In this document: piece by piece, positions 36,765 through 63,900 of the stretch
Position numbering within the stretch: position 1 is the stretch's first letter
How the letters are laid out: each line of letters begins with the position of its first letter
Assembly: GCA_030647415.1 (NCBI GenBank)
Contig: JAUSKB010000026.1
Span: 10,894 to 74,893 of the forward strand
Reading direction: 5' to 3'
Length of the DNA stretch: 64,000 nucleotides
Source of the DNA: a bacterium
Lineage (GTDB): Bacteria > Patescibacteriota > Minisyncoccia > UBA6257 > GWB1-50-10
The notes under the pieces: model-generated
What the model was told of the DNA's origin: nothing
Seen by the model: the letters and a program-made list of their open reading frames with translations, nothing else
Database searches by the model: none
Position numbers and translations under genes: made by a program

Positions 36765-36786
36765 GGATTCAGTATAAAGAATGGCG

Positions 36787-38046: not shown

Positions 38047-38057
38047 ATGATAGTCAG

Positions 38058-38186
38058 TTTACCCTGTTAGAAATTTACACGCTAACGTACATCTACCTAC
38101 CCATGTGTAGCAATAACGCACCATTTCAAGCATCAGGCCTGCATGTCCGGTAGGCGGGTGTGTATGTAAATTTCTAACATGGTAAA
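38058..38186. mobile_element. MITE-like palindromic element M1 (129 bp), with TIRs tttaccctgttagaaatttacac / gtgtatgtaaatttctaacatggtaaa.
   Basis: Read directly. It begins 12 nt upstream of the mntH ATG. Related copies lie at 44733, 60667, 60792 and a degenerate one at 62195. Confidence 0.55.
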
Positions 38187-38224
38187 TAAACAACGCGCGG
38201 GTTCTCCGCGCGTCGACCGATCTA

Positions 38225-38560
38225 CTAGCGCCCCGCAGGAAACGATGTCCGATCCCCGGATGCGACGGTAAAAAAGAGCTCCCCAAAGAAGGCCGGCTCC
38301 CAAAATCGCCCGTCTGGGAAATGCGCGTTCCCGAACGCAACCGCATCTACTCGCTCGACAAAATAATACCCGTTGAGGCCTTCTGACATTTCAGTTGTAC
38401 CAAACCGGAACCCCCATGCGTTCGCCTTCGCCGACGTCAAAATGCCGAGCCGCTCGAGATGCGCACAGCTCCTTTGAAAATGCCTCCATTCCAGCGAACC
38501 CTCTGGGGTCGCTGTTGCCTCCACAAACTGATCGTGAAGGGTGCCCCACCCTATGGTCAT
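38225..38560 (-). CDS. Hypothetical protein, tandem paralogue of the 38625..38978 product.
   Basis: Shares LE.LG.LT..K...WGF and YF..R.D.A.FG blocks with the neighbour. Confidence 0.45.
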   Translation of the reverse strand: MTIGWGTLHDQFVEATATPEGSLEWRHFQRSCAHLERLGILTSAKANAWGFRFGTTEMSEGLNGYYFVERVDAVAFGNAHFPDGRFWEPAFFGELFFTVASGDRTSFPAGR

Positions 38561-38624
38561 ACTATCCTCCTAGAATAACTGGTACCATCCTACTGTCGTG
38601 GTAGACGCCTGTTAATAAAAATAT

Positions 38625-38978
38625 TTAGAGCTCTCCAAATTGATGGAGCATCCAGAATCCACCAAAACACAGCTTTCCAAAGAGCGCCGCATCGTCCCGC
38701 CTCACGAAGTAGAAGTCGTCGAGACCTCTCGCCACTTTCTCATCACGGAAAAAGGATTCAAACCCCCATGAACCTTCTTTCTCGCGTGTCAGTACCCCGA
38801 GCTGTTCGAGTTGTTTACAATTCTCAAAAAATACTTGGCACTCCGGAGCTTCCCCTTGCCTACCATATGCTGTAAAGTACTGATCACCAAGTAGTTTCCA
38901 GTCCCTCTCGGTTACCATAGTGTCCCCATATATTGTGAAAGATATTGTGACACTACTCGCCTTCGCTGGTTCGGTCAA
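38625..38978 (-). CDS. Hypothetical protein, tandem paralogue.
   Basis: See above. Confidence 0.45.
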   Translation of the reverse strand: MTEPAKASSVTISFTIYGDTMVTERDWKLLGDQYFTAYGRQGEAPECQVFFENCKQLEQLGVLTREKEGSWGFESFFRDEKVARGLDDFYFVRRDDAALFGKLCFGGFWMLHQFGEL

Positions 38979-39028
38979 CAGTACCCGATCCCGTTTACAT
39001 TTCGGGGCTCATCGGGTAGCATGGGTTC

Positions 39029-39529
39029 ATTCAGTATCGGATCAACAACTACATCACCGCACCGGAGGTCCGGGTGGTCGGCGCCGACAATGAGAGCTTG
39101 GGCGTCCTCCCGATCGCGGAAGCTCTCCAGCTCGCCCGGGACCAGGGTCTGGACCTCATTGAGGTCGCCCCGAACGCTAAGCCGCCCGTCGCCCGGATTA
39201 TCGCCTACGATAAGTTCCGGTACCAAAAGGAGAAGGAGTTCAAGAAGCAGCGGCTTGCCCAGCGTGTGAAAGACCTGAAGCAGGTCCGCATCACGGTGCG
39301 AATGGGAAAGAATGACCTTGAGGTCCGGCTGAAGAAGGTTGAGGAGTTCCTCACCAACGGGCACCGCGTCGAGATCATGATCGCGCTCCGCGGGCGCGAG
39401 AAGGGAAATAAGGAGTGGGGCTTGCAGAAACTCGCCGCCTTCCGTACACTCATCAAGACTCCATTCACGGTGGTGATGCCGCCGCGGTGGGGCGGCCGGG
39501 GGTTCATCACCCAGATAGCTAAAAAATAA
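39029..39529 (+). CDS. infC: Translation initiation factor IF-3, with a probable non-AUG (AUU) start.
   Basis: INNYITAPEVRVVGADNESLGVLPIAEALQLARDQGLDLIEV... matches IF-3 N- and C-domains. The frame opens after a TAG at 39017 with no in-frame ATG before the conserved N-terminus. ATT at 39029 parallels the E. coli infC AUU start. Confidence 0.75.
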   Translation: MQYRINNYITAPEVRVVGADNESLGVLPIAEALQLARDQGLDLIEVAPNAKPPVARIIAYDKFRYQKEKEFKKQRLAQRVKDLKQVRITVRMGKNDLEVRLKKVEEFLTNGHRVEIMIALRGREKGNKEWGLQKLAAFRTLIKTPFTVVMPPRWGGRGFITQIAKK

Positions 39530-39708
39530 TGCAAAAAAGCTACTCAACTCGCCTGAAGATTACCGGCCGCGGCAAGATTCGCCGCCGGTCGACCACGCTC
39601 GGACATTCCCGGATGAACAAGACGGGCGCCCAGATTCGACATAAGCGGCGGCTCCGGAAGCTCGCCGGCATCCACCGCGAGGAACTCTCCAGGAATCTCA
39701 CAAATTAA
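39528..39708 (+). CDS. rpmI: 50S ribosomal protein L35.
   Basis: Translation MQKSYSTRLKITGRGKIRRRSTTLGHSRMNKTGAQIRHKRRLRKLAGIHREELSRNLTN. Overlaps the infC stop (taATG). Below the ORF-track length cutoff. Confidence 0.8.
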
Positions 39709-39717
39709 CGAATACGT

Positions 39718-40062
39718 ATGACCCGAGTCAAACGAGGTACGAGTGCCACTAAAAAACGCCGTAGCGTCCTGAAACAGGCGAAGGGGTTCCGTTGGGGCAG
39801 GAAGTCAAAGGAACGCGCCGCAAAGGAGGCGCTCCTCCACTCACAGTCCCGCGCCTTCAAGGGGCGGAAGGAGAAGAAGCGCGTCTACCGCGCGCTCTGG
39901 AACGTCCGCTTGAACGCCGCAGTCCGCGAGCACGGCATGACGTACAGCACCTTTATTGCCGCGCTGAAGAAAAAAGGGGTGAAGCTCGACCGGAAGGTGC
40001 TCTCCGAGCTCGCCGTGAAACATCCGGACATATTCAAGCGCATCGTCGAATTCGTCCGCTAG
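39718..40062 (+). CDS. rplT: 50S ribosomal protein L20.
   Basis: MTRVKRGTSATKKRRSVLKQAKGFRWGRKS...AALKKKGVKLDRKVLSELAV matches L20. Confidence 0.9.
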   Translation: MTRVKRGTSATKKRRSVLKQAKGFRWGRKSKERAAKEALLHSQSRAFKGRKEKKRVYRALWNVRLNAAVREHGMTYSTFIAALKKKGVKLDRKVLSELAVKHPDIFKRIVEFVR

Positions 40063-40073
40063 CAAATCGAGAA

Positions 40074-40095
40074 CCTCCCACCCGGGAGGTTTTTT
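40074..40095 (+). terminator. Rho-independent terminator cctccc-acc-cgggagg followed by TTTTT.
   Basis: Read directly after the rplT stop. Confidence 0.7.
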
Positions 40096-40456
40096 AGTCA
40101 CTCTCCAGAAGCTTATACCCGAACCGCTTGAGATCGATTTTCCCCTGCTCTATTTTCACACCTTCCCGCTTCAGCATCTTGATCTTCCGTTTGGTCCCGC
40201 GCGCGAACCCGCCCACCATTCCGTCCGACCGGACGACGCGATGGCACGGAACTGTGCGGGCGCCTGCCCTGAGCGGAGCCGAAGGGAACGGGTTCCGGTT
40301 CATCGCGTTCCCCACGGCGCGGGAGGCGCCGGGCCGCCCGACCGCCCGGGCGAGCGCGGCATAGGTCGTCACCTTCCCACGAGGAACACGGCGAAGCACC
40401 TGGTAGACCCGGGCAGTGAAGGTCGGCGCGAAATTGCTGCGGTGGTAAATATTCAT
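40094..40456 (-). CDS. ogt: Methylated-DNA-protein-cysteine methyltransferase DNA-binding domain protein (Ogt/MGMT-like).
   Basis: Active-site VPCHRVV. 120 aa. Confidence 0.8.
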   Translation of the reverse strand: MNIYHRSNFAPTFTARVYQVLRRVPRGKVTTYAALARAVGRPGASRAVGNAMNRNPFPSAPLRAGARTVPCHRVVRSDGMVGGFARGTKRKIKMLKREGVKIEQGKIDLKRFGYKLLESD

Positions 40457-40464
40457 GAATTTAC

Positions 40465-40502
40465 AGAGGCGAGACCTCAGGGCTCCCCGAGGTCTCGCCT
40501 CT
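40465..40502. repeat. REP-like hairpin H1 agaggcgagacctc-agggctcccc-gaggtctcgcctct.
   Basis: 13-bp perfect stem. Related copies lie at 41116 and 56286. Confidence 0.6.
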
Positions 40503-40545
40503 ATCGGCTTTCGGTTTGAATCCCCAAGGTTTCACCTCGGGAAGC

Positions 40546-41079
40546 TCAGGGGCGGATTGGCGGCGGCCGATACCTATGATGCACCCGATTCCCGTGTGCC
40601 GCTTTCGGTCCGACCTGCCCCCCGCGGCTCAGCGGGACGGGGCTCACCAGCTCGTACGCCCGCTTCAGGTTCCGCTTGAGATTCGGAGCCACGAGCATCC
40701 GGAGCGCGTCACGGTACAGAAACCAGCCGTACCCTTCGTGGGGCTCGCCGGGCGCGTCGTCGCCCCGTGCGGGGAGAGTGATGGCGATCTTCTTCGTCTC
40801 GGCGAGATAATAGGTAATGGTCTTGAAGATACGCTCGCGATCTCGGGTGAACACAAACTGGTCACGAATCTTGAAGTGGTGTTTGAACCGAAGGTCTCCC
40901 TCCGCAATGCCGGTCTCCTCCTCAACCTCCCGGAGCGCCGCCTTGAAGTTGGACTCGCCGTCTAGCTTCCCCTTCGGGAAGCTCCAATTCCGGCCGCCGT
41001 GATACGTAAGGAGAAATTTCGGTCCGTCCGACGTCTGCCGGTAGATGATCATGCCTGCTGATATTTCTCGGGATACCAT
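40546..41079 (-). CDS. NUDIX hydrolase.
   Basis: Nudix box GKLDGESNFKAALREVEEETGI. Start chosen at an internal Met so that hairpin H2 stays intergenic; the track ORF runs to 41163. Confidence 0.65.
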   Translation of the reverse strand: MVSREISAGMIIYRQTSDGPKFLLTYHGGRNWSFPKGKLDGESNFKAALREVEEETGIAEGDLRFKHHFKIRDQFVFTRDRERIFKTITYYLAETKKIAITLPARGDDAPGEPHEGYGWFLYRDALRMLVAPNLKRNLKRAYELVSPVPLSRGGQVGPKAAHGNRVHHRYRPPPIRP

Positions 41080-41115
41080 GAAAGGTTTGGTGTGGGGCAA
41101 TAATACCACGAAACC

Positions 41116-41153
41116 AGAGGCGAGACCTCGGGGAACCTTGAGGTCTCGCCTCT
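41116..41153. repeat. REP-like hairpin H2 agaggcgagacctc-ggggaacctt-gaggtctcgcctct.
   Basis: Identical loop to H3, with compensatory stem differences. Confidence 0.6.
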
Positions 41154-41175
41154 GGGGAATCATCCGGGCATTTCT

Positions 41176-41853
41176 CTATCGGTGCCCACCCGGCAAATGC
41201 GGTCCACCGGTCGGCGGCGGGGTAGCGGGAACGGCGGTCGGTGCGGGAAACAAGACACGCGGCACCGTGAGAAGGAGGAACGCCGACCCAAACGAGAGCC
41301 CGCCCGCGACAAGGTAGAGGGCGGTGAAACCGAGGAGCTGGGCAATCGCACCCCCAATGAACGCGGAGGCACCAGAAACCAGGGCGACACCGGTCCCGTC
41401 GAGCGCCCAATCGAACGCGCCCGACCCTTTGTCGAGGTGGCGCGAAAAGATGGCATACCATGCCGGCGAGTAGAACCCGAAGGCAACGCCCTGGACCAGC
41501 GCGACCGCAAAGAGCCCCACAGGGGTCGTGATGGTGAGGTAGGCGAGCGCCGAGACGCCGCCGAGTATGAGGCCGAAAATGAGCGCGTGAAAGTCATCGC
41601 GTTCCCCGTTATGCCGGTCGATATAGACCGCGACCGGCATCTGAACCGCGGCGCGCGTCGCCCAGTAGATGGCGACGGCGACGCCGACCGTGATTGCATC
41701 CGCTCCCACAATGCGGTCGAGAACAAAGAGCGCGAAGATTGGACCCACGAGCCCCCAACCGCCCCAAAAGAGGAGGTCACCCACGACGAACGCCCGGACG
41801 ATCCGGTTCACCGTCGGAAACTTCAAACGAATGTGGATGCTGCCGAGATCCAT
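41176..41853 (-). CDS. MFS-like half-transporter (6 TM, 226 aa). Possibly a truncated MFS pseudogene or a split transporter.
   Basis: About six hydrophobic segments with MFS-like loops. The upstream in-frame extension overlaps the Clp gene end. Start taken at MDLGS. Confidence 0.45.
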   Translation of the reverse strand: MDLGSIHIRLKFPTVNRIVRAFVVGDLLFWGGWGLVGPIFALFVLDRIVGADAITVGVAVAIYWATRAAVQMPVAVYIDRHNGERDDFHALIFGLILGGVSALAYLTITTPVGLFAVALVQGVAFGFYSPAWYAIFSRHLDKGSGAFDWALDGTGVALVSGASAFIGGAIAQLLGFTALYLVAGGLSFGSAFLLLTVPRVLFPAPTAVPATPPPTGGPHLPGGHR

Positions 41854-41858
41854 GGTAG

Positions 41859-44384
41859 TTATGCGGTTACCGAGAACTGGAAGGTGTCCCCCTCGACGTC
41901 GAGCTCGATTGCGTTCCCCCGGTCGATCTCCTTTCGGAGCAACTTTTCCGCAAGCACGCTCTTCACGCGCTCCGAGATGGTCGCACGGAGCGGCCGGGCG
42001 CCGAACGTGGGGCTCCACCCCAGCTCGGCGAGCCTCCGAATCGCGGCGTCTGTCGCGGCGAGCTCGATGCCGTGCGTCTCGCGGAGCGAATCGGCAACAT
42101 CGCGGATGAGGAACCCGGCGATGGTCGCGATCTCGTCTACGGAGAGGTTCCGAAACACAATGATATCAGAAAAACGGTTCAGGAGCTCGGGCCGGAAGTA
42201 CTCGGTGAGTTTTGACTTCAATTCGTCGGAAATATCCTCGGTCGTTCTGCCTTTTTTGACCTCATCCTGGATGTAGACCGAGTGCGCATTCGAGGTTGCG
42301 ATAATGATGGTATTCGAAAAATCCGCTGTGCGTCCGAGACTGTCGGTGAGCCGACCGTCGTCGAATACCTGGAGAAAGAGGTTCAGGATGTCCGAATGCG
42401 CCTTCTCGAACTCGTCGAGGAGGATGAGGCTGTACGGATCGCGGAGCACCGCGTCGGTTAAAGCTCCGGTCCGCTCGCCGTCCGGCGTGCCGATGAACCG
42501 CTGGATACTCGACTTCTCCTGATACTCGGACATGTCAAACCGGTGCATGAGGTCCTTCGAACCGAACTGTATGGCGGTCAGTATCTTCGCAAGCTCCGTC
42601 TTCCCCACCCCGGTCGGCCCCACGAAGAGGAAGGTGGCGATGGGACCGGACGAGCGCGCGAGCCCGCTCCGGTACTCACGAAGCGCGCGGGCGACCGCCG
42701 TGACCGCCGGCGCCTGGTTCACGAGCTTCCGGTGAATGAGCGCCTCGAGGTTTAGGAGCTTTTCCGTTTCGGCGGTCCCCGCCTGCTGAATGGGAATTTT
42801 GCTCTGTGTCTCCGCAACAGCAATGACCGTTGCCTCGTCGAGCGTCGTGCGTCGCTCGGCGGCTGCCTTCGCGAGCGCGAGCTTCAGAAGGTCTAAGGCA
42901 CTCCCGGGCAGGAGCTTATGCCGGAAGTACCGATGCGCGAGCTGTACCGCACGGCGAGCCGCGTGGAAGGTGATGACAATGCGGTACTCGCGCTCCAAAA
43001 GCAGGGCTGCGTAGACGAGAAATCGGGTGGCTTCGGCTTCCGTAATTTCATCGATGGGCACCGTCTCGAAAAGCTCGAGGAAGTCGGTCCGTTGCTCGAT
43101 ATACTGCTTGAACTCCCGCGGGAAGGTCTCACAGATGACCGGAATCGCCGCACTCCGGAAAACCGGCAGGAGAAGGTCGATGGGGTTCACCGCACCCTTG
43201 CCGGCGAGTCGAAAGAGGTCGTGCACGTTCGGCAGGAAGAGCACGATGTTACCGGCGAGCGCGATTTCCTCGACGACCTTCCCGAGCCGCCCCGCGAGCA
43301 CCTCGGTGGACGCATTCGCGATAAGTTCCGTGAGGTTCACCTCTACAAGCCGCTTGTCAAAAAGCACCGGGGGCACCTGGTCCTTCACCATCCGGAATGC
43401 GAGGTGGGCGATTATCGTGGATTTGCCGGAACCCGGCTCGCCCACCAGGATGGCGTTCGGCTTCCCCGGACGTGCAATGACGTTCAAGAGGGTAGAAAAC
43501 TCACGTTCGTGGCCGATGAGGAGCCCGATCTTCTCTGCTCGAGCGAGGTCGGTGAGATCGGTTGAGTACCGGTCGAGCGCCGGCGTCGGCCGTGCGGTCC
43601 ACGCACGGTTCATCGTTCGGTGCCGGAGAAATTTCGGCTGGTGCGCAAACCCGCTAAGCATTGCCGGCGTCCGGCGAATGGGTCCAAAGAGCTTTCGCCA
43701 GCGGCCGAAAATCGCCGCCTCCTGAATGTCCGGCGCAGTCACCTCGAAGAGTCGAAATAGTTTCCCTACTTGCGGGTGCCCTACCGCGGTCGCGGCCACG
43801 AAGAGGTTCCGCGGTTCAATAAATTGCTCGTTCGTTCCCCGCGCGTTCTCGAATGCGGCGATGACGAGCGCTTCGACGGGGTCGGTGCCGGGCGAATCAG
43901 TCTCTGGCTCGACCCCCTCCCCGTGCCGAAGTTCGGCGCTCCGCTCCATATACTCGGTGAGGCGCGCGAGGAATTCCTCGCGCGGAATGTCGAGCCGGCG
44001 GAGCGCCTCGCGGATATCGGGAATGTCCGAAAGTCCCAAGAGAAGCACTAGGTGAAAATCCTGACCGAACGCCTTCGCTTTTCTGACCGCCGCATTCAAA
44101 GCCCGAAACGCGCGGGGTGTGAGCGACTGCCCGACATTCACCCGGCTCCCCGGCAGGTCGCTCACTGTCCGTTCGGCCTCGCCGAAGTGGAGCAGTCGGT
44201 CGCCGAGAAACAGGACGAACAGCGCTCCCAGCCACTGGAGCTGGCTCACGCGTGAAATGAGGAGGAGCGCGGTCGAGGCGGTAAGCACCGTGTACGCGCA
44301 AATCCCGACGAGTCGGACGAAAAACTCGCCGGGAGCGGTCATGGTAAGTCGGGCGTCGCTGAAGGTGAGCGTTTTCATTTTCAC
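41859..44384 (-). CDS. ClpA/ClpB/ClpC-family AAA+ chaperone with two predicted N-terminal TM helices.
   Basis: Two Clp_N-like repeats. D1 Walker A GEPGSGKST. D2 Walker A LFVGPTGVGKTELAK. Sensor and arginine-finger regions present. The N-terminal ~70 aa are hydrophobic. Confidence 0.8.
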   Translation of the reverse strand: MKMKTLTFSDARLTMTAPGEFFVRLVGICAYTVLTASTALLLISRVSQLQWLGALFVLFLGDRLLHFGEAERTVSDLPGSRVNVGQSLTPRAFRALNAAVRKAKAFGQDFHLVLLLGLSDIPDIREALRRLDIPREEFLARLTEYMERSAELRHGEGVEPETDSPGTDPVEALVIAAFENARGTNEQFIEPRNLFVAATAVGHPQVGKLFRLFEVTAPDIQEAAIFGRWRKLFGPIRRTPAMLSGFAHQPKFLRHRTMNRAWTARPTPALDRYSTDLTDLARAEKIGLLIGHEREFSTLLNVIARPGKPNAILVGEPGSGKSTIIAHLAFRMVKDQVPPVLFDKRLVEVNLTELIANASTEVLAGRLGKVVEEIALAGNIVLFLPNVHDLFRLAGKGAVNPIDLLLPVFRSAAIPVICETFPREFKQYIEQRTDFLELFETVPIDEITEAEATRFLVYAALLLEREYRIVITFHAARRAVQLAHRYFRHKLLPGSALDLLKLALAKAAAERRTTLDEATVIAVAETQSKIPIQQAGTAETEKLLNLEALIHRKLVNQAPAVTAVARALREYRSGLARSSGPIATFLFVGPTGVGKTELAKILTAIQFGSKDLMHRFDMSEYQEKSSIQRFIGTPDGERTGALTDAVLRDPYSLILLDEFEKAHSDILNLFLQVFDDGRLTDSLGRTADFSNTIIIATSNAHSVYIQDEVKKGRTTEDISDELKSKLTEYFRPELLNRFSDIIVFRNLSVDEIATIAGFLIRDVADSLRETHGIELAATDAAIRRLAELGWSPTFGARPLRATISERVKSVLAEKLLRKEIDRGNAIELDVEGDTFQFSVTA

Positions 44385-44387
44385 CGG

Positions 44388-44732
44388 TCAGCCAGCGAAC
44401 GCGAGGAAAAGGAGGGTGGGCGGGATGCCGAGCCATACCGCGTACACTACGACCGCGATGGAAAGTAGTACGGCATACACGGCGGTCGCGGCGGCGAGGC
44501 GGCCGATACGGAACAGAAAGCCGAGAACATACCCGATAACCGAGTAGTCCTTGTAGAGCGGTTGAAAGAGGTTTTGGAGCGTTACCCGCCAGGCGAGTGT
44601 GTGGTCCAGGGCCTGGAGCCGATTTACCACGCCGTTCCAGTAGATGCGCATGCTGTGCACGTACCAGTGCCGGAGGAACTCACCGACATGGAACGCGGCG
44701 TGCCGGACGACGTATACTACGGCGGAATTCAT
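44388..44732 (-). CDS. Small hypothetical membrane protein, first gene of the Clp operon.
   Basis: Two or three TM helices. Its stop lies 3 nt from the clp ATG. Confidence 0.5.
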   Translation of the reverse strand: MNSAVVYVVRHAAFHVGEFLRHWYVHSMRIYWNGVVNRLQALDHTLAWRVTLQNLFQPLYKDYSVIGYVLGFLFRIGRLAAATAVYAVLLSIAVVVYAVWLGIPPTLLFLAFAG

Positions 44733-44832
44733 CCCGTTAGAAATGTGATATTGGTAGATACGCCGACAACGTATCTGCTTCGTGGGTTCGTGGGTTAATG
44801 GACATTAGATTCAAAGCAAAATTTCTAACGGG
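44733..44832. mobile_element. MITE-like palindromic element M2 (100 bp), with TIRs cccgttagaaatgtga / caaaatttctaacggg.
   Basis: Starts at the nucleotide after the 44732 start codon. Has an internal hairpin agatacg..cgtatct. Confidence 0.5.
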
Positions 44833-45033
44833 ATTCATTGCTTTCATTATAGAGAAAAGATAAACAATAAACGACAAACAAAAAACGTCCCGGCTACTGC
44901 CAGGACGTCACACCATGAATTTCACCGAAACCATCCACATACGTAGGTGAGCATCCCTATTACGAATACCACCCACCACCATCGCACCACCATGGTCATC
45001 ATAGACTCTCCGATTCGAATCATAAGACCTCCG

Positions 45034-45411
45034 TTAATATGGGGAGAATCGTTCCCACAAAAGAAAAATGCGAATGACGACTCCCCACGCCACCGTCACG
45101 AAAATCGGGGTAAGCACTATCCGCACGGGCGAAGCATCCGGTTGTAGGAAAAACGACGCTACCCAGCCTCCCGCAACCCAAACGCCGAAAACAATTAACA
45201 CCTCCAACGCGCGAGACGGGCCGAACTTCCGGCGATTGAAGAGAGGGAGTAGTCCCTCCCATAACATGAGTGGCCACGAGACCAGACACAGCAGAAAACC
45301 GATACCATCCCCGAAGTAGCACGGGAAATTGAACCGGGGCGCAATCAATATGCCCCTGCCCGAAATGAAAAATACCGTGAGCACGGCGGCAACACAGCCG
45401 ACTGTTTCCAT
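45034..45411 (-). CDS. Hypothetical membrane protein (125 aa).
   Basis: Four predicted TM helices. Confidence 0.45.
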   Translation of the reverse strand: METVGCVAAVLTVFFISGRGILIAPRFNFPCYFGDGIGFLLCLVSWPLMLWEGLLPLFNRRKFGPSRALEVLIVFGVWVAGGWVASFFLQPDASPVRIVLTPIFVTVAWGVVIRIFLLWERFSPY

Positions 45412-45497
45412 ATATACCTCCTAAAAAGTTGTACTGCCCTCCTTATACGGCACGCCACACGAATATGCAAATGCTAGTGGTGGGTTGAGTGTCTGCG

Positions 45498-45532
45498 GAA
45501 GTCGGACTCCCCCACGTAAGTCCGACTTCCCA
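45498..45532 (-). terminator. Hairpin ggaagtcggact-cccccacgta-agtccgacttcc downstream of the UDG gene.
   Basis: 12-bp perfect stem. Confidence 0.55.
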
Positions 45533-45549
45533 AATATTGAATTCGTGGG

Positions 45550-55154: not shown

Positions 55155-56267
55155 TTACACCCATCCGGTAAGGTGCGCCACCTCGTAGGCGATGGCGGCG
55201 AGGAAGATGGGAACCAGGAGCCAGCTTGCGAACCGCCACGGATGGTGTGGGAAGGCGCGACGCCACATCATGACAATGAAGATGCCCTCGAGCGAGAGGA
55301 AGACGCCGCCCGCAAACCCGATTGCAGTAAAAAACTCTCGTACGCCGGCGACATAGAGCGCGAGCGGGGCGGCAATAGCAACCGTCGCGGCGAGCGCCTT
55401 CTTCCACCGCAGGTCGCGCTCGAGGGTTTCCTCTACGTTCACGCCGATAATCACGTACGAGGTCCAGAGGGTTACCAGACCGAGCGTGCCTAGGGTAACC
55501 GGAAGCCATGGTGCGGCGCCCACAAGGCTCGAAACCGCGTCCGGCCCCGCAGCGGGCGCGAGCCGGAGCACGCCGACCACGAAGGCGAGGTAGATGACCG
55601 CGGGGAGTGCCGTTCCCCACGCGATGACGCGCCCGAGCGGGAACGGCTTGCCGCTCGCCCGAACGGCGCGTGCCAGCTCCACCGCTTTCCCCACCGCGGG
55701 ACGGCCGGCGAACGCGAAGAGGAATGGTCCAAAGGGGAGGAGAAATACGCCGAGGGAGAGGGGCTGCGCAAGCGGCGCAGTAAACGGCGCGGCGGGGACG
55801 GCGAGCACGGCAAGGACGATCGCAAGAATTGCGACGACACCTATCGCCTCGCCCCAGCCAAGCCATGAGGTTTTGAGAAAGAGTGCGACGGACCCGAGCG
55901 CCCAGAAGACCACCGCACCGACGATCCCCATGCCCGGCAGGACGAGCTCAACAAACGCCGGGGCGAGGATGAGGTAGATGGTGAGAACTAGGACAAGCTC
56001 AAGGAGAATGATGCCACCTGCAGTAGGCGCCATCCGGCGTGGCAGATAGGCCTCCGCAAGCTTCACAAACTGCCCGCTATCGACGCGTGTCTCAAGGAGC
56101 GCCGCGTACATGCGATGGATCGCCACATACACGCCCGCAAACGCAACGAGATAGAGAGCGCTTGTCCCGAGGCCAAGCGTTCGAACTACGAAGGGCAGGG
56201 AGAACATCCCTGCCCCGATGATGGTGCCGGAGAGGAGCGCGACGGCAAGAAAGCGTGGAAATTTCAT
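55155..56267 (-). CDS. Amino-acid permease-like membrane protein (HAAAP / Trp-Tyr permease-like).
   Basis: N-terminal LLSGTIIGAGMFSLPFV resembles the aromatic amino acid permease motif. About 11 TM helices. Confidence 0.55.
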   Translation of the reverse strand: MKFPRFLAVALLSGTIIGAGMFSLPFVVRTLGLGTSALYLVAFAGVYVAIHRMYAALLETRVDSGQFVKLAEAYLPRRMAPTAGGIILLELVLVLTIYLILAPAFVELVLPGMGIVGAVVFWALGSVALFLKTSWLGWGEAIGVVAILAIVLAVLAVPAAPFTAPLAQPLSLGVFLLPFGPFLFAFAGRPAVGKAVELARAVRASGKPFPLGRVIAWGTALPAVIYLAFVVGVLRLAPAAGPDAVSSLVGAAPWLPVTLGTLGLVTLWTSYVIIGVNVEETLERDLRWKKALAATVAIAAPLALYVAGVREFFTAIGFAGGVFLSLEGIFIVMMWRRAFPHHPWRFASWLLVPIFLAAIAYEVAHLTGWV

Positions 56268-56285
56268 GGGGAAGAACTGAAACCA

Positions 56286-56323
56286 AGAGGCGAAACCTCG
56301 GGGAACCTTGAGGTTTCGCCTCG
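56286..56323. repeat. REP-like hairpin H3 agaggcgaaacctc-ggggaacctt-gaggtttcgcctcg.
   Basis: Same loop as H2. The stem differs by a compensatory pair (gagacctc/gaggtctc vs gaaacctc/gaggtttc). Confidence 0.6.
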
Positions 56324-56350
56324 TATGTATCCCGTTCCCAGTATCCGAAT

Positions 56351-56683
56351 CTAGGACTTATCTGTCAGGTATACTTTGTTCCCCTCATGCACCTTCTCCT
56401 TCACCTTGATGCCGATCTCCTGCGCCTTCTTCGCGACCGCGATGGGCTGGTGGTCGTACTGCATGGAGGCGATGGGTTGCGTAAAATCGGTGTGCGCTCC
56501 GAGGAACCGCACAGTCGCTCCGACCTTCACCGGCTTCGAGAACTTCACGATGCCGACCGAGATGTGGTCAAAGAAGTGCGTGACAATGCCGATGGGTTTG
56601 CCGAGCTTCGGCTTCGGTTGTGCCGCCGGACGCTTCGCCGCGGTCTTCCGTGCTGGTTGCTTCGTCTTTTTTACCGTTGCCAT
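56351..56683 (-). CDS. Hypothetical protein with a basic N-terminal tail (110 aa).
   Basis: Lys/Ala/Pro-rich N-terminus followed by a beta-rich domain. No family assigned. Confidence 0.45.
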   Translation of the reverse strand: MATVKKTKQPARKTAAKRPAAQPKPKLGKPIGIVTHFFDHISVGIVKFSKPVKVGATVRFLGAHTDFTQPIASMQYDHQPIAVAKKAQEIGIKVKEKVHEGNKVYLTDKS

Positions 56684-56858
56684 ACGATTATGATACCAAT
56701 ATACCTGCCCGCAATGCTACGCATAGCGTTGCAGGCGGGCGAATGGTACGAATGATGCTAATCATACGAATAGATACCAATTAGTATTATTCGTATCATT
56801 TCCGCCTGAGGCGGATCGGCCTTCGGCGGACGCATGAATTAGCATATTAGTATCGCAC

Positions 56859-57653
56859 TTACAATATTCGACCTTTGACGCCGTTCTTCTTTTCATCACG
56901 TTCGATAAGGTCAAGAACGCGGTCTATGAGGTCGCCGGGATCTTCCGAGTAGACGACGTTGCCGGAACCGCGGTGCGCCGCCTCGATGATTTGCGGCAGG
57001 AGGTTCGTGGTGCCACCGGCGCCCGTGAGGACCCCTTGCGGCTTGTCATCCTCGAACGCATCAGTGAACTCGTTCAGGGTACCCATGCGGCCGCACATCG
57101 TTATGAGCGCGTCCGATGAGCGGGTGAAAAGGAGATTTCTGCCCGAGTAGCCGAACCCGGTATAGATGACGAGGTCGTGGTAGTCGAGTGGGAGGCGATA
57201 CGTCTTCACGTGCGCCGCTTTCGATGAGGCGGGCGAGAGACCGATGACGATGCCGCCTTCCGCCTTCGCGCCTTTCGCCGCCCAGTACGGCAGGCCGGTT
57301 GTCGCGCCGGTTATGAGTACCATGCCGCGCTTCGCAATCTCCCGACCGACCTGCTCGGCCTTCTCGATGGCGTCGGCGTTGCAGTGGCTCGTCTCCGCGG
57401 CACCCGAAACACCAATTTTGTACCGGAGGTGGTGTGCGTGGAGGTTATGGTTTGTCGGTTTCGCACCGACCGCGGCGTCGGTCGCAGCGGGGTGCCGCCC
57501 CTCGGTTACCGTCGCGCCATCCGATTTTCCGCGAGCCCGCTCCGCCGGAGCTTGAGCGAGGCGAGCTGGCGGACGAAGGTTCGCCTCGTTTCCCGGAATC
57601 CCGGTGGCGGGAGACGCCCCATCTATCATTCGATGTGTTTGTGGCATGGTCAC
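56859..57653 (-). CDS. LOG/TIGR00725-family Rossmann-fold nucleotide-binding protein with an ~80-aa disordered N-terminal extension.
   Basis: YKIGVSGAAE ... TGATTGLPYWAAKGAKAEGG ... TMCGRMGTLNEF matches LOG-family motifs (GGG.G.M...PGG.GT.EE). Its start overlaps the stop of the upstream beta-CASP gene. Confidence 0.6.
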   Translation of the reverse strand: MTMPQTHRMIDGASPATGIPGNEANLRPPARLAQAPAERARGKSDGATVTEGRHPAATDAAVGAKPTNHNLHAHHLRYKIGVSGAAETSHCNADAIEKAEQVGREIAKRGMVLITGATTGLPYWAAKGAKAEGGIVIGLSPASSKAAHVKTYRLPLDYHDLVIYTGFGYSGRNLLFTRSSDALITMCGRMGTLNEFTDAFEDDKPQGVLTGAGGTTNLLPQIIEAAHRGSGNVVYSEDPGDLIDRVLDLIERDEKKNGVKGRIL

Positions 57654-57656
57654 TCG

Positions 57657-59024
57657 CTATGATAGCACCGCGCTGTCGCCGAGAGAAGGAACGACGGCAT
57701 CAACCGCGAATTCGTCGCGGATTTTCTGCGCAAGCGGTTCCGCCTGGTCCGCATCGCCCTGTACAACAAAGGCGCGGGTGAGCGTGAGTCGGAGCGGCTC
57801 CACCCATCGCAAGAGCTGCGGCTGGTCCGCGTGTGCCGAGTAGCCGGAGAGGGAGTACTTCCTCGCACGCACCGGCACTGTCTCCCCAAATATCTTTACC
57901 GTCTCGGCACCCTCGAGTACCATGCGACCCAAGGACCCCACCCCCTGGTACCCGATGAAGAGAATGGCGCTTTTCGGGTCCGATAGGTACCGGCGCTCGT
58001 GGTGGAGAATTCGCCCGCCGTTCGACATGCCGGCGCCGGCCACGATGACCTTTGGGGGCGACACTTCGTTGATCTGCTTCGATTCTTCCGTCGTGAGCGT
58101 GAGCCGGAGTCCGGGGAAGTTGAAAATATTCTCCCCATCTCTGATGAGCTCCACCGCATGCTCATTGAAGTAGGTGTGGTCGCGCGCGTACTTCTGGTAG
58201 ATCGCGGTGAGCTTGATGGCGAGCGGGCTGTCGATGAACACCGGCACCGTGGGCACGCGGCCGTGCTCGATGAGCTGGTTCAGCTCGAAAAGGAGCTCCT
58301 GCGTGCGTTCGAGGGCGAAGGCGGGAATCATAAGCGTGCCGCCCGCGGCCGCCGTGTTTTCGATGACGTCTTCCAGGATGTCGCGGCGCCGGTCAAGCTC
58401 CTCATGCACGCGGCCGCCGTATGTGGATTCGACGAGCACATAGTCCGCGTCCGTGAAATACTCGACCGGATTGATGAGCGGCTCCGGCATATTACCAAGG
58501 TCGCCCGAGAAGACGATGCGCTTGCCGCCTGCCTCGACGAGAATCGAAGCGGAACCGAGAATGTGGCCTGCATCGTACAGGGTCGCGGTGATGTCGCCGA
58601 CCGTAATCGGCTCGTGGTACGGCACCTTCCGCCAAATCGAGAGCGTAGTAGCCACGTCCTCCACGCGGTAAAGCGGAGCGTGCTTCTTTTTCCTTGCCTC
58701 TTCCTCAAGGAGGTGCTCGGAATCAAGGAGGAGGAACTCGGCAACGTCCTTCGTGGGCGGCGTGGAGTAGATGGGGCAGGTGAGCCCCGCCTTCACCAGC
58801 TGTGGCAACCGCCCGATGTGGTCTACGTGCCCGTGCGTAATGAAAACCGCGTCAATTGACTTCGGGTCGTACGGGAACGGCTCGTAATTGTGCCGCTCGC
58901 CGAAGCTCGACCCCTGGTGGAGACCGCAATCAACGAGAATTTTCGTGGTCTCGGTCTCAAGGAGGTAGTTTGACCCGGTCGTGCCGCCGCAACCGCCGCA
59001 GAAGGTAAGTGTGGGGGGTTTCAT
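57657..59024 (-). CDS. MBL-fold beta-CASP RNA-metabolising nuclease (CPSF/RNase J-like).
   Basis: HGHVDHIG metal motif. Beta-CASP region. C-terminal H residue motif (SGYSAHAD). Confidence 0.75.
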   Translation of the reverse strand: MKPPTLTFCGGCGGTTGSNYLLETETTKILVDCGLHQGSSFGERHNYEPFPYDPKSIDAVFITHGHVDHIGRLPQLVKAGLTCPIYSTPPTKDVAEFLLLDSEHLLEEEARKKKHAPLYRVEDVATTLSIWRKVPYHEPITVGDITATLYDAGHILGSASILVEAGGKRIVFSGDLGNMPEPLINPVEYFTDADYVLVESTYGGRVHEELDRRRDILEDVIENTAAAGGTLMIPAFALERTQELLFELNQLIEHGRVPTVPVFIDSPLAIKLTAIYQKYARDHTYFNEHAVELIRDGENIFNFPGLRLTLTTEESKQINEVSPPKVIVAGAGMSNGGRILHHERRYLSDPKSAILFIGYQGVGSLGRMVLEGAETVKIFGETVPVRARKYSLSGYSAHADQPQLLRWVEPLRLTLTRAFVVQGDADQAEPLAQKIRDEFAVDAVVPSLGDSAVLS

Positions 59025-59130
59025 GAGCGTGTGTTCATTCTAGCGGAACTTGTACCGCTTTCCCATCACATCCGATTGACACGCGTCTAATTGCAAGCGA
59101 TTATGCACACTAGAACATCTTGGAGGGGTT

Positions 59131-59400
59131 ATGATATTCGAACTCATCGGCGGAGTGGTGGTCTTCGGGGCATTACTCGTCGTCGGGTACGCCTCGGCGA
59201 TCAACAACGTGGCGGCGAGATATTCGTTTGCGGCGTGCGTCACCGCGTCGACACTCATTGGGATACTTTTGCTCTTCGCGTTCCGGTTCGTCTTCGGCAA
59301 TCATTGGGAAGCAGACGCAGCCGCAGGGGCAATCTTCGTCGGATTTGTCATCGGCGACGTCGTGATGGCCATTCGAAAGAGGGGTTTGCGCATGCGGTAG
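59131..59400 (+). CDS. Small hypothetical membrane protein (89 aa).
   Basis: RBS ggagggg. Two or three TM helices. Confidence 0.45.
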   Translation: MIFELIGGVVVFGALLVVGYASAINNVAARYSFAACVTASTLIGILLLFAFRFVFGNHWEADAAAGAIFVGFVIGDVVMAIRKRGLRMR

Positions 59401-59428
59401 AAGACTTCAGCCCCCACCGGGGGCTGAT

Positions 59429-60667
59429 TCATTTCTTCATCGCGGCGAGCTCCTCCTCTGCCACCTGCCGCTCGTTCCACGGGACCGTCTCGCCGTTCGC
59501 GATGCGGATCACGGTCTCACTCCCCTTCCCGGTTAGCACAACTGCGTCGCCGGGCCGCGCGAGATGAAATGCTTTCCGGATGGCCATACGGCGGTCCAGG
59601 ATGCGGAAGGTCTGGTCCTCCCGCAGTCGCCGGGGCGAGGCGTCCAAAAATCCCCGCGCGATGGCGTCTAAAATTCGCTCCGGCACCTCGTCGAACGGGT
59701 CCTCGTTCGTCAAAACCACCACGTCGCACGCTTCGGCGGCGATTTTTCCCATGACCGGCCGTTTCCACGCGTCACGACCTCCTGCCGCCGACCCAAAAAC
59801 GCCAATGAGGCGAGTGCCGGGGGCGAGCAACGAACGAACCGCGCCGTAGATGGCGAGGAACGAATCGGGCGTGTGTGCGTAGTCCACGATGACCTGAAAC
59901 GGCTCTGTCTGCACGCGCTCGAACCGGCCCGCGAGACCGCGGAACGACTGGAGTGCGGCGACGATGGCCGCTTCAGGCGCCCCGAGCGCCTCGGCGACCG
60001 CCGCCGCCGCGGCCACATTCTGCATGTTGAACGGCGCGGCAAGCCACACATTCGCCTCGGCCGCCGAACGAACTGCCGCAGAGAGGTCGGCGGGACTGAA
60101 CCGTGTCACCGCATGCCCCGGCACGGACCGAGCGACATCCTCGAAATGCCTTACGTTCGCATCATCCGCGTTCACCGCAAACCGCCGAACCCGCTTCGCG
60201 GAGGACGCAAGCGACCGGAAGAAATCGAGCTTCGCCCCACGGTACGCCTCGAAGGAGCCGTGCGATTCCACGTGCTCCGGCGAGAGATTGTTGAATACGG
60301 CAACGTCCCAATCGATGAACCGGTGCCGGTGTTGCCGGATACCCTCGGAGGACACTTCGATGAGGGCGTGCGTCGCGCCGGCGGCGGCCGCGTCGCGGAG
60401 GAAGTGTTGGAGGCGGCCGCGCCCCGGCATGGTATTGCCGTACGGGTTCGCGCCCGTCTCATCGGCGATGATGCGGTGCACAGTCGAAAGGAGCGCCGGG
60501 CGCCGGTGGTCCGCAAGAAGCATCGCGCGGATGAGCTCGAGCACGGTGGACTTGCCCTTCGTCCCGGTCACCCCGACCACGACGAGCTTCCGGCCCGGCC
60601 GGCCGTACCAGACGGCCCCCGCGAATGCGAAGAAGAGGTGGTAGCTGTTGAGTAGTTTCCGGTACAT
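59429..60667 (-). CDS. Mur ligase family protein (MurE/MurF/MurT-like).
   Basis: ATP-binding GVTGTKGKST motif. Mur ligase middle and C-terminal domains. 412 aa. Confidence 0.7.
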   Translation of the reverse strand: MYRKLLNSYHLFFAFAGAVWYGRPGRKLVVVGVTGTKGKSTVLELIRAMLLADHRRPALLSTVHRIIADETGANPYGNTMPGRGRLQHFLRDAAAAGATHALIEVSSEGIRQHRHRFIDWDVAVFNNLSPEHVESHGSFEAYRGAKLDFFRSLASSAKRVRRFAVNADDANVRHFEDVARSVPGHAVTRFSPADLSAAVRSAAEANVWLAAPFNMQNVAAAAAVAEALGAPEAAIVAALQSFRGLAGRFERVQTEPFQVIVDYAHTPDSFLAIYGAVRSLLAPGTRLIGVFGSAAGGRDAWKRPVMGKIAAEACDVVVLTNEDPFDEVPERILDAIARGFLDASPRRLREDQTFRILDRRMAIRKAFHLARPGDAVVLTGKGSETVIRIANGETVPWNERQVAEEELAAMKK

Positions 60668-60778
60668 TTACCCTGTTAGAAGTTTACATACACTCATAGC
60701 GTGCGGATTACGTGTATTTCTTGAAACAGTACTGTGTTTATGGATACCGTGTGCGCGTAAACTTCTAACAGGGTGAAT
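60667..60778. mobile_element. MITE-like palindromic element M3 (~112 bp), with TIRs tttaccctgttagaagtttacat / gcgtaaacttctaacagggtgaat.
   Basis: Begins at the nucleotide after the 60667 start codon. Confidence 0.55.
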
Positions 60779-60791
60779 CTCCTTTTTCCTT

Positions 60792-60903
60792 TTTACCCTG
60801 TTAGAGATTTGCACGCACACCACTTGCTATATACGTTTATGTACCAGTACGAACAGAATATGCAGTGCATAAAGATTGTATGCAAATCTCTAACAGGGTG
60901 AAT
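60792..60903. mobile_element. MITE-like palindromic element M4 (~112 bp), with TIRs tttaccctgttagagatttgca / tgcaaatctctaacagggtgaat (perfect).
   Basis: Tandem to M3, separated by a 13-nt spacer. Ends 9 nt before the ruvA stop. Confidence 0.55.
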
Positions 60904-60911
60904 CTTTTTTC

Positions 60912-61517
60912 TTATTTCCTCCCCAGCATCTTTAACGCCTCCTTCAGCCGCGCCTCGGTGGTGGTGCCGCCTGCCCCGACGGCACCGTCGGGGTCCGCCG
61001 ACCCGAGCTGTTCAATCGCGTGCCGCGCCTCCGCCCGCTGGTACCCGAGCATCACGAGCGCCTCCTCTACTTCGAGGTTCACGTCCATGGACTTCGTGCG
61101 CTCCATTGCGCCCACGAGCGCCACGCGGCTCTGGAGCTCGAGCACGATGCGCTCCGCCGTCCGCTTCCCGATGCCGGACGCCCGCGCGAGGAGGTCGGTT
61201 CGCCGCTCGAGGATGGCCGCCTGGATATTCGGCACCGTGTCGAGGTCGAGGATGCCGAGCGCCGTCTTCGGCCCCACGCCGGAGACAGAAATAAGCAGGT
61301 CAAAAAGCTTGAGCGACTGCTCATCCGGGAAGCCATAGAGGTCAAGCGCGTCCTCCTTCACCGCGAGGTGGGTGTAGAGGGTGACCTCCGCGCCCGTCAT
61401 CGGAAGACCCGCGAGCGTCTTTCCGCCCGCAAACACCTTGTACCCCACGCCGCCGCACGAAACGACCGCGAAGGTCTCGCCTCGTCCCGCGAGCGTCCCC
61501 GTGAGCTGGTGGATCAT
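60912..61517 (-). CDS. ruvA: Holliday junction DNA helicase subunit RuvA.
   Basis: MIHQLTGTL...VGYKV N-domain, HhH motifs (LISVSGVGPKTALGIL) and C-terminal domain. Confidence 0.85.
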   Translation of the reverse strand: MIHQLTGTLAGRGETFAVVSCGGVGYKVFAGGKTLAGLPMTGAEVTLYTHLAVKEDALDLYGFPDEQSLKLFDLLISVSGVGPKTALGILDLDTVPNIQAAILERRTDLLARASGIGKRTAERIVLELQSRVALVGAMERTKSMDVNLEVEEALVMLGYQRAEARHAIEQLGSADPDGAVGAGGTTTEARLKEALKMLGRK

Positions 61518-61626
61518 ACCTTCAGTATAGGCGGATAGCGCTCATGCGCGGAATATTGACAATTTACAAGTATAAAAGTATAATACAAAGCAGATTCATT
61601 CACCAAAAACAAATATTGGAGGTTGT

Positions 61627-62133
61627 ATGAAAAAATGGTTGAAGCGGACGGCGGTAGCAATCCTCGCCCTTGTTGCGTACGTGAACATTGGACATTTAGT
61701 CAATGAGGGCGTGTGGCGAATGCATTTTTACGCGAAAGAAGCGCCAGTATCTTTCGTGATATTCCCGGCCCCCCAGATGTTCGGGGTCGGAAATGTCAGT
61801 TTCGGAAAACTTGGAGGGCAGATGCGAAACGGTGCTGGGACTTTTGAAGAATATCGGGATCTCCCCTTAGGTGGTAAGTGGATGGGCGTGTTTGTATGGC
61901 CCATCACTCTTGTAGTGTTCTGGGGTGTAGCAATTATTTGCTGGATCGTCCAAGTGCTGTTATGGGCATGGGATGGGATAGTTCTTGCGCTCTCGTTCCT
62001 GTTCTCGGGAGAATTGGTTGAGTTAATGGTGCAAATCGGGTTCTGGTGGAATCTGATCGCCATCATGATGGTCGCGACGATCATTCGCTTGTTATACCAG
62101 GTATTTAAAAAAAATGCGAGCGAGCAGAGATGA
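61627..62133 (+). CDS. Hypothetical membrane protein (168 aa).
   Basis: RBS ggagg. Several TM helices. Confidence 0.5.
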   Translation: MKKWLKRTAVAILALVAYVNIGHLVNEGVWRMHFYAKEAPVSFVIFPAPQMFGVGNVSFGKLGGQMRNGAGTFEEYRDLPLGGKWMGVFVWPITLVVFWGVAIICWIVQVLLWAWDGIVLALSFLFSGELVELMVQIGFWWNLIAIMMVATIIRLLYQVFKKNASEQR

Positions 62134-62194
62134 GGTGTAGACAGTTCGCCCACCGGAATCCGGCGGGCGAATCATTTTCATGCTGGTTGAATTT

Positions 62195-62299
62195 GACCCC
62201 GTATAGAGTTTTACGCACGCACCGTGGCGTGCATAGGCGTTGGCTCATAAACCAGTCGGGCGCTTTGGGTGGGATGGAAACGTAAAACTCCGACGGGTG
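62195..62299. mobile_element. Degenerate MITE-like copy M5 (ccccgtatagagttttacgcacgc ... cgtaaaactccgacgggtg), abutting the rpsT promoter.
   Basis: About 70% match of both arms to the M4 TIR. The -35 TTGACT of rpsT starts at 62301. Confidence 0.35.
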
Positions 62300-62300: not shown

Positions 62301-62329
62301 TTGACTTCACGCCCCACATCCGGTTTAAT
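62301..62329 (+). promoter_or_regulatory. rpsT promoter: TTGACT, 17 nt, TTTAAT.
   Basis: Read directly. The ATG is at 62340. Confidence 0.55.
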
Positions 62330-63160: not shown

Positions 63161-63190
63161 GATTCCATTTTCTCGTATAGGACGGCAGTC
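63161..63190. promoter_or_regulatory. Palindromic box tctcgtataggacggcagtcctatacgaga.
   Basis: 30-bp near-perfect palindrome between the PaaX-like gene 2 stop and the next gene's start. Confidence 0.5.
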
Positions 63191-63258
63191 CTATACGAGA
63201 AAAAAGATTGAAAGAGATGAGTAGATTGTAAACCTAAATCAATCTTCGGTTCCCCCTC

Positions 63259-63894: not shown

Positions 63895-63900
63895 AGGTTC

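Follow-up and report, generated by a model that had tools for sequence, protein, structure and literature searches.

A probable Correia-like family of palindromic mobile elements at gene starts in Patescibacteria

The DNA analyzed here, referred to as the window, is a stretch of 64,000 nucleotides from a bacterium of the Patescibacteriota (assembly GCA_030647415.1, contig JAUSKB010000026.1, positions 10,894 to 74,893). It contains four clear copies and one degenerate copy of a palindromic sequence located immediately upstream of genes. These sequences probably belong to a non-autonomous mobile element family of Patescibacteria of the MITE kind (miniature inverted-repeat transposable element), similar in its working to the Correia repeat enclosed elements (CREE). 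The typical copy, about 105 bp long, has a free interior enclosed by terminal inverted repeats of 21-26 nt (the arms) with ACCCTGTTAGA as their core. The arm pair of the family is ACCCTGTTAGA ... TCTAACAGGGT, and the consensus of the inverted arms of the copies is TTYACCCTGTTAGARRTTTRC. The copies have an internal polarity: an 'A' arm (..TTTRCATACA..) can be told from a 'B' arm (..GTGCGYGTAAA..), and nhmmer scores show a preferred orientation. Loci and contigs from other genomes and metagenomes are designated by L followed by a number. The copies in the window and the sequences adjoining them are the following.

38047-38057, minus strand: leader of 11 nt, CTGACTATCAT, from copy 1 to the mntH ATG
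38058-38186: copy 1, 129 bp, arms TTTACCCTGTTAGAAATTTAC and GTAAATTTCTAACATGGTAAA, 'B' arm toward mntH
38191-38215, minus strand: intrinsic-terminator-like hairpin of the gene upstream of copy 1, ending 3-4 nt before the far arm
44727-44732, minus strand (ATTCAT on the plus strand): ATGAAT, gene-side 6-bp direct repeat at copy 2
44733-44832: copy 2, 100 bp, a variant; arms CCCGTTAGAAAT and ATTTCTAACGGG
44833-44838, minus strand: ATGAAT, far 6-bp direct repeat at copy 2, 7 nt downstream of TATAAT
44846-44851, minus strand: TATAAT, a perfect -10 hexamer of the clp-leader gene, with copy 2 now between hexamer and gene
60667-60778: copy 3, 112 bp, AAGTTTAC-type arms, 'A' arm toward murE
60792-60903: copy 4, 112 bp, AGATTTGC-type arms, internal polarity opposite to that of copy 3
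62191-62299: copy 5, degenerate, ending 1-2 nt before the -35 box of rpsT

The genes adjoining copies 1-3 are all on the minus strand. The ATG of mntH (NRAMP/MntH) is at 38046; that of the clp-leader gene, a 114-aa open reading frame (ORF) that heads a ClpA/B/C-type ATPase gene, is at 44732; and that of murE, at 60667, shares the last base of copy 3 (GGGTAAATG). Homologues of MurE and Clp assign the uncultured host to Patescibacteria near Jorgensenbacteria and Paceibacteria, a clade in which the short MurE lacking the N-terminal domain is normal. The end of copy 4 is 8 nt from the ruvA stop codon, and the -35 box next to copy 5 is TTGACT (62301-62306). At copy 1, the arm end together with the leader reads GGGTAAACT-9 nt-ATG, which results in a -10-like TAAACT; the same leader sequence recurs in L037, and similar ones are found at pheS (L020) and relA (L017).

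An earlier reading of this DNA, made from the sequence alone, had described four clear copies, a degenerate fifth one abutting the rpsT -35 box, and the closeness of copies 1-3 to start codons. The four clear copies were found at the coordinates it gave, and the distances to the start codons are 11 nt, 0 nt and a one-base overlap. In copy 5 the inner arm GAGTTTTAC pairs, the GTTAGA core is gone from both arms, and the nhmmer family profile gives a marginal full-length match (62191-62294, E = 0.013, 11.4 bits). A profile of 14 family members detected nothing beyond the five copies within the window. The core CCNGTTAGAR occurs seven times in the window against 0.64 expected, a number reached in none of 100 shuffled sequences. 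The same reading had advised folding each element, and every copy forms a stable hairpin with a terminal stem of 14-21 bp (z-scores -3.8 to -6.7). The copies, at 100-129 bp, are non-coding in that they have no conserved ORF. Two Logan contigs, L008 and L013, break within the interior of copy 3, where coverage may be low or the population heterogeneous.

Orthologous sites in relatives are empty, and this marks the copies as insertions specific to the lineage. This comparison, which had been proposed together with the first description, was made with contigs of relatives at different distances. In a more distant syntenic relative (L059/L060, of which L059 is an 86-kb contig; ClpB 66% identical), all three window loci are element-free: the ruvA-murE gap is 5 nt (L059), the gap between a 106-aa gene and the Nramp gene is 9 nt, and the clp-leader gene is leaderless (TATAAT-7 nt-ATG). 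The clp-leader site is also empty in L058, a 74% relative (TCTATAATGAAACC-ATG), and the usual spacing in relatives is TATAAT-6 or 7 nt-ATG. L012 has a ruvA-murE interval without the element. The reverse case was found as well: L037 carries a copy 5' of an HD-domain gene, and at this place the window has a bare 42-nt spacer (36748-36789) ending in TATACT-6 nt-ATG. Filled and empty orthologous sites, one of the features that define a mobile sequence of the MITE type, are found in both directions. The copy 2 locus also preserves what looks like the footprint of the insertion event. It reads TCTATAATGAAAGCA-ATGAAT-(copy 2)-ATGAAT-TCCGCC, in which the first ATGAAT holds the ancestral distance from the -10 hexamer and the second heads the 114-aa clp-leader gene, supplying its ATG and its codon 2. 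To judge from this arrangement, the ATGAAT pair is a classical target-site duplication of 6 bp.

Further copies exist in relatives and in other lineages within the candidate phyla radiation (CPR), as expected of the MITE-like palindromic family that had been proposed. The 21-nt arm pattern was found at seven loci among 185,579 species genomes, four of them in named metagenome-assembled genomes of the CPR (Kazan, Moraniibacteriota, Staskawiczbacteria and a 'Patescibacteria group' bacterium), and at 42 loci in metagenomes. Many of these arm loci have a second, inverted arm 40-215 nt away; L025, L028, L047, L048 and L051, with one arm only and within another repeat, were left out as unrelated. 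Viral contigs were considered as carriers and dismissed, as they gave two matches only, both in apparently coding sequence and taken as chance. In coding DNA, the contigs of close relatives (58-62% GC, mostly from sample Ga0209211) share about 85% identity with the window, and these high-GC contigs carry 2-3 copies of the element, of about 105 bp, per 2 kb. The dispersed copies, both in the 64 kb of the window and in the contigs of relatives, have homologous bodies: the interiors can be related to each other by nhmmer and alignment, and they form subfamilies. The arms are common terminal inverted repeats, in which 80% of the arm cells of 21 elements are standard pairs. Shortened forms occur, such as the perfect 44-bp palindrome with zero interior in L049, and nusA in L031 has a tandem pair upstream that resembles copies 3 and 4. 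The elements have a GC content of 32-47% inside genomes of 56-62% GC, and the arm sequence is conserved over distant CPR lineages of 33% to 62% GC. These data establish a multi-copy family with subfamilies and internal polarity in which the arms of one copy evolve in concert.

Two observations on family members stand apart from these results. In eight contigs of 38-45% GC, from metagenomes or genomes (L007, L014, L019, L038, L045, L052, L053, L055), a nearly identical member of 100 nt precedes, by about 10 nt, a reverse transcriptase ORF with motifs of the type found in diversity-generating retroelements (..LGNLTSQ.., YADDF), as recognized by eye. In L037, a GC-rich segment of 93 bp (positions 29-121) splits the far arm of the mntH element (TTTACC|...|ACCTGTTAGGG), with ACC on each side of it; the segment could represent a further small mobile element.

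The positional bias toward start codons noted in the window holds at nine further loci in relatives, where a long ORF begins 0-16 nt outside the element end (L009, L017, L020, L031, L035, L037 twice, L042 twice). The genes next to the elements of relatives, identified by Pfam, include pheS, relA/spoT, nusA, recO, an HD-domain gene, mntH and murE and have no obvious common function. A phosphoglucomutase-like gene (Pfam) begins 26 nt from a lone arm in L041. Either the A end or the B end may face the gene. A Shine-Dalgarno sequence was not found between element and ATG; 17 of the 41 window genes have one. In five window genes without it, a TAnnnT hexamer is located 5-6 nt before the start, as in ruvA (TATACT-GAAGGT-ATG), and this arrangement suggests leaderless mRNAs. 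Starts of this class, without Shine-Dalgarno sequence, are found for instance at 61518-61535, 46171-46190, 63895-63912 and 16046-16063, and other genes have a strong AAGGAGG.

The ends of the elements are not equivalent in this respect. Gene-side ends are mostly GGGTAAA and far ends mostly GGGTGAA, and the gene-side end together with the next bases is often -10-like (TAAACT, TAAAAT, TATAGT) 6-9 nt before the ATG. In such promoter-like sites the 17-nt arm takes the place of the spacer, and a -35-like hexamer is found at the inner edge of the arm. A consensus scan found TTGACG-18-TAAACT-6-ATG in L035 and TTGCAA-17-TAAAAT-6-ATG in L049, and under a looser scan about half of 16 loci have a site whose hexamer ends 4-9 nt ahead of the ATG. 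These putative promoters are consensus matches and inference, as distinct from functional evidence. A different arrangement is seen at murE (window and L009) and recO (L042), where a purine-rich Shine-Dalgarno-like motif (AAGGAGA, AAGAGA or TAGGG) borders the stem on its 5' side and the ATG borders it on its 3' side. Folding of the hairpin would set motif and ATG about 5-6 nt apart at these loci.

These features can be accommodated in a model for the spread of the element. It would land in A/T-rich DNA beside start codons, either in the core promoter or in the spacer of the ribosome-binding site. The insertion could be tolerated for two reasons: the gene-side GGGTAAA(CT) would keep or supply a -10-like hexamer, with the 17-nt arm as the spacer, and the element, if transcribed, would form a hairpin that loops out of the interval from the upstream signal to the ATG. 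The location of the arm also invites another explanation, namely that the arms are paired operators of a conserved CPR transcription factor, placed in the spacer between -35 and -10, and that the family is its regulon. Conservation of the arm across distant CPR lineages regardless of GC content (33% to 62%), its fit to the spacer of the promoter-like sites, and the interior-free 44-bp palindrome of L049 are all compatible with an operator. However, the gene set is heterogeneous, the exact arm is present at only seven loci in the 185,579 species genomes, and mobile DNA typically shows both such insertion polymorphism and such homology among the interiors of its copies. A regulon of this kind is therefore very doubtful.

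The sequence-only reading had also stated that the inner part of the arms varies between copies and matches within each copy. This was confirmed with 21 elements: the two sides change together at arm columns 15/46, 16/45, 20/41 and 25/36, and the covariation score is 0.212, compared with 0.145 +/- 0.014 after shuffling (reached in 0 of 500) and with at most 0.137 when the partners are slid. The same reading went on to attribute this covariation to selection for an RNA hairpin in the 5' untranslated region (5'-UTR) instead of simple transposon copies, and that part is not supported in view of the empty sites and the duplication at copy 2. Neither the arm mismatches nor the terminator before copy 1 support it. 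On the sense strand there are 18 G.U and 26 A.C mismatches, and position 3 is C.A on the sense strand in seven elements. As selection on the sense RNA would favor G.U, the complementarity looks strand-symmetric, as expected of a process at the DNA level. Since copy 1 directly follows an intrinsic terminator, a full 5'-UTR hairpin transcript is improbable there; the location of the terminator indicates that copy 1 is probably not transcribed in this form. A transcribed hairpin is likely for copy 2, with its TATAAT 7 nt upstream of the first ATGAAT, and possible for copies 3 and 4.

A host-selected cis-regulatory RNA, in which the 5'-UTR hairpin controls translation or mRNA processing, either through RNase III or by joining the Shine-Dalgarno sequence and the AUG, is nevertheless an explanation with arguments of its own. 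The hairpins are stable and both sides of the arm change together. The TATAAT upstream of copy 2 implies that this copy must be transcribed, the Shine-Dalgarno-like motif and the ATG would come together across the stem base at murE and recO, and the murE arms of the window and L009 are identical at 23 of 23 positions despite the 85% identity of the coding DNA. This explanation is unlikely in light of several other facts. The downstream genes are unrelated in function, the presence of the element differs between close relatives, either end can be turned toward the gene, and interiors and loops are unconserved. In the low-GC lineages the layout of Shine-Dalgarno sequence, hairpin and AUG is absent. 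G.U is not enriched among the sense mismatches, and a terminator abuts copy 1. A search of the window with Rfam 15 returned only a transfer-messenger RNA (tmRNA) and one tRNA match at gathering score, and for the elements at relaxed thresholds only weak sub-threshold matches to hairpin models of microRNA precursors. Coupling to an upstream ORF that ends at the arm TAA before the ATG was also considered and rejected: the arm, reading outward, has TAA in all three frames, and such an ORF was found for copy 2 only (33 codons), with none consistent over 13 loci. Under the mobile-element reading, what keeps the arms of a copy identical would be a process at the DNA level (recombination of one arm with the other, or correction templated by a hairpin or cruciform) and not selection on the mRNA.

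A number of findings weigh against a family of mobile elements moved by ordinary transposition. A search of 37 window ORFs and of the retrieved loci, which was not exhaustive, turned up no transposase and no autonomous element with the same ends, and two arm-pattern scans of the genome and metagenome collections found no pair of arm matches more than about 215 bp apart. A clean target duplication exists only at copy 2; the other flanks (TTTA...TAAA; T-N-N-A) can be read alike as a TA duplication or as an extension of the inverted repeat. The promoter-related part of the argument is affected too: -10-like signatures near ATGs are only modestly enriched in the window (5 vs about 3 expected), a promoter-like site was not found for copy 2, copy 3 and its L009 counterpart (murE), recO or nusA, and the match at copy 1 is only 7 of 12. 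TTTAAA was tried as a scarce target that would lie behind the proximity to start codons and was rejected, as the five free TTTAAA sites of the window are not close to gene starts. Lastly, at murE the elements of the window and L009, flanked by coding DNA that is 85% identical, have both arms identical at 23 of 23 positions and the same junctions, and their interiors are unalignable in either orientation. Simple transposition fails to explain the replacement of an interior at fixed junctions.

A similar replacement has taken place at mntH. Comparison of the window with L037 showed that both junctions and the outer arm are the same, the inner arms differ and the A/B polarity is opposite; the interior of the L037 element is nearest to window copy 4 (79% identical). 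Judging by these alignments, interiors turn over faster than neutral drift allows, while outer arms and junctions stay. Possible causes are arm-mediated exchange among copies, repeated insertion at a hot spot and instability of the palindrome centre. The opposite polarity at identical junctions could also point to invertons, in which a shared recombinase would flip the interior between the arms and so switch the adjacent genes. The 21-26-bp inverted repeats beside gene starts and a promoter-like site reading inward from the 'A' arm (TTCACC-16-TACAAT) would suit such a device, and inversion of Correia elements has been reported (PMC10969869). Yet the flipped interior of the L037 element has no significant similarity to copy 1 (z = 0.7), and with the different inner arms this indicates replacement and not a simple inversion. 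Moreover, the murE locus has one orientation in three independent assemblies, no recombinase gene is present among the window ORFs scanned, and the interiors are only 60-85 bp long. We consider invertons extremely improbable.

A more speculative proposal is that a conserved recombinase or DNA-binding factor of the CPR docks on the arms as fixed sites, and that the short interiors, and occasionally gene cargo such as the radical SAM (rSAM)/TrmB island described below, are swapped from locus to locus as cassettes. This would explain the unrelated interiors at mntH and murE as well as the conservation of the arms over CPR lineages of 33% to 62% GC. If it were true, each gene start would have an exchangeable promoter or leader module. 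We regard it as quite improbable.

The window also includes a 2.7-kb island (49092-51767) of low GC (42-46%) with genes for a TrmB-like regulator and a B12-binding radical SAM protein. An ORF scan showed that it encodes no transposase. At its borders are inverted repeats, imperfect and about 60 nt long, the outer part of which contains ACCAAGTTAGAAC.

49092-49119: left inverted repeat of the island, TTGTACCAAGTTAGAAC...; its end reads TCTAACTTGGTACAAT-9 nt-ATG of the gene at 48203-49081 (minus strand)
51740-51767: right inverted repeat of the island

The first description had matched these terminal repeats to the element arms and suggested that both belong to one family. The match stands as a string (ACC..GTTAGAAC), and the left end has the layout of the small elements (TCTAAC-4 nt-TACAAT-9 nt-ATG). 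On the other hand, the same rSAM-TrmB pair recurs in L067-L069 with 82% identity, and the inverted repeats on its flanks there are different ones that lack GTTAGA. Homologous pairs without GTTAGA repeats and the lack of a transposase led us to reject the island as an autonomous or cargo-carrying member, and the sequences suggest at most a weak link between island and family.

Other observations were made around the island. Most close homologues of the TrmB-like protein come from short contigs, a pattern suggestive of DNA that is repeated or mobile. The tRNA-Arg(CCG) gene occupies 52342-52416, and several partial copies of its 3' end (..GCCCTCATGAGG..) are found in 51768-52416, on the side toward the island; the segment from tRNA-Arg to an ABC-transporter gene varies among relatives, as at an integration hot spot. 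A second palindrome family of about 40 nt (..ACCATAATGGACGGCCGTCTATTACGGT..) is present at 52519-52559, 53240-53280, 63167-63207 and 63901-63941 and in L037 (1542-1585). In the window, two paralogous minus-strand genes with a PaaX_M domain, 52580-53332 and 63259-63894, are each bracketed by these palindromes. The palindrome of L037 is located downstream of mntH, and in L061-L066 PaaX_M genes adjoin the TrmB homologue.

Three more features of the window were recorded. A GC-rich hairpin, GAGGCGAGACCTCGGGG..CCGAGGTCTCGCCTC, by its look a terminator-type repeat, has three copies at gene ends (40455-40502, 41111-41163, 56281-56322). Three spaced tandem repeats of 66-100 nt (ATTGCCCCTACACTCGAGGTCATCAC...GTGGTGGGCTCGACGGTAGAAAA) occur in 8559-10104 at intervals of about 590-880 nt, upstream of small ORFs. 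The minus-strand gene at 11133-15008 encodes a 1291-aa class I aminoacyl-tRNA synthetase, IleRS-like, with a histidine-phosphatase (His_Phos_1) domain inserted at residues 562-726, inside the catalytic domain.

In the paper library searched, nothing relevant turned up on MITE-type or palindromic repeats in Patescibacteria, and this group is absent from a review of prokaryotic MITEs published in 2024. Patescibacteria have very small, streamlined genomes, in which a palindrome expanding 0-16 nt from the starts of essential genes such as murE, pheS, nusA, relA and recO would rewire promoters and leaders. There is a practical effect as well: because several contigs end inside copies, the element causes assembly breaks. 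The element could act as a lineage marker. Independent of the Neisseria elements, it is also a second system in which the movement of Correia-type elements, and the reasons for their build-up 5' of genes, can be studied.

Among known systems, the attC sites of integrons have core sites in the order 5'-RYYYAAC...GTTRRRY-3' and are recombined by the integrase IntI. The order in the elements is GTTAGA...TCTAAC, inside-out with respect to attC, and no integrase is present in the ORFs scanned; an attC identity was rejected. The arms also seem to differ in spacing and sequence from the known consensuses of LexA, CIRCE and CtsR-type operators. In TIGR-Tas arrays, box C (RUGAUGA) and box D flank spacer pairs beside a tas gene with a Nop domain (bioRxiv 10.64898/2026.09.09.750476). 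RTGATGA is present on either strand in 0 of 14 elements, and the annotated ORFs include no protein with a Nop domain; this candidate was likewise discarded.

Larger resemblances are found to the palindromic repeats of other bacteria. Like REPINs, the elements are long non-coding hairpins with arms kept complementary by coordinated changes, without obvious target duplication and with persistence at orthologous sites (PMC3116915). In contrast, the arms are not themselves short palindromes and have no GTAG-type motif, the copies are located at start codons and not at extragenic sites in general as is described for REPINs, and no Y1 transposase (RAYT) was seen among the annotated ORFs of the 64 kb; a REPIN/RAYT system does not fit these observations. 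The ERIC/IRU and RUP/BOX repeats are similarly imperfect palindromes of 100-130 bp in transcribed intergenic DNA, found in either orientation, in shortened and lengthened forms, and variably present between relatives (PMC2229807, PMC3049150). Their sequences are unrelated, and the copies described here are tied far more tightly to start codons.

The closest parallel is with the CREE of Neisseria, also called NEMIS. These elements are 104-108 or 153-157 bp long, are mostly located 5' of genes and generate promoters at their ends; they have terminal TA or CA variants, can supply the A of an ATG as their last base, and form hairpins that are processed by RNase III (PMC2649163; PMC10969869). The Patescibacteria family shares the size of about 105 bp, terminal repeats of 21-26 nt of two types that give polarity, the preference for positions 5' of genes, and, as consensus matches in about half of the copies, putative promoter hexamers at the ends. 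Some copies end on the A of an ATG, and the TTTA or TTCA next to CCC corresponds to the TA/CA variants. Transcript hairpins can form, and both families are without a known transposase (PMC2649163, PMC10969869). The two families differ in sequence: the CREE end is TATAGCGGATTAACAAAAATCAGGAC and the arms here are TTYACCCTGTTAGA..., from which the Correia repeat TATAG[CT]GGATTAA..., located at both ends of CREE, is absent (pattern from PMC2649163). They also differ in the Patescibacterium host and in that no IHF site was recognized here, and a TA duplication is indistinguishable from an extension of the inverted repeat, with one copy showing a 6-bp duplication. Further differences are that related arms are common to several CPR lineages and that interiors turn over at fixed junctions. 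The family is new and, without being a member of the Correia elements or a new type of regulator, it is Correia-like in its working.

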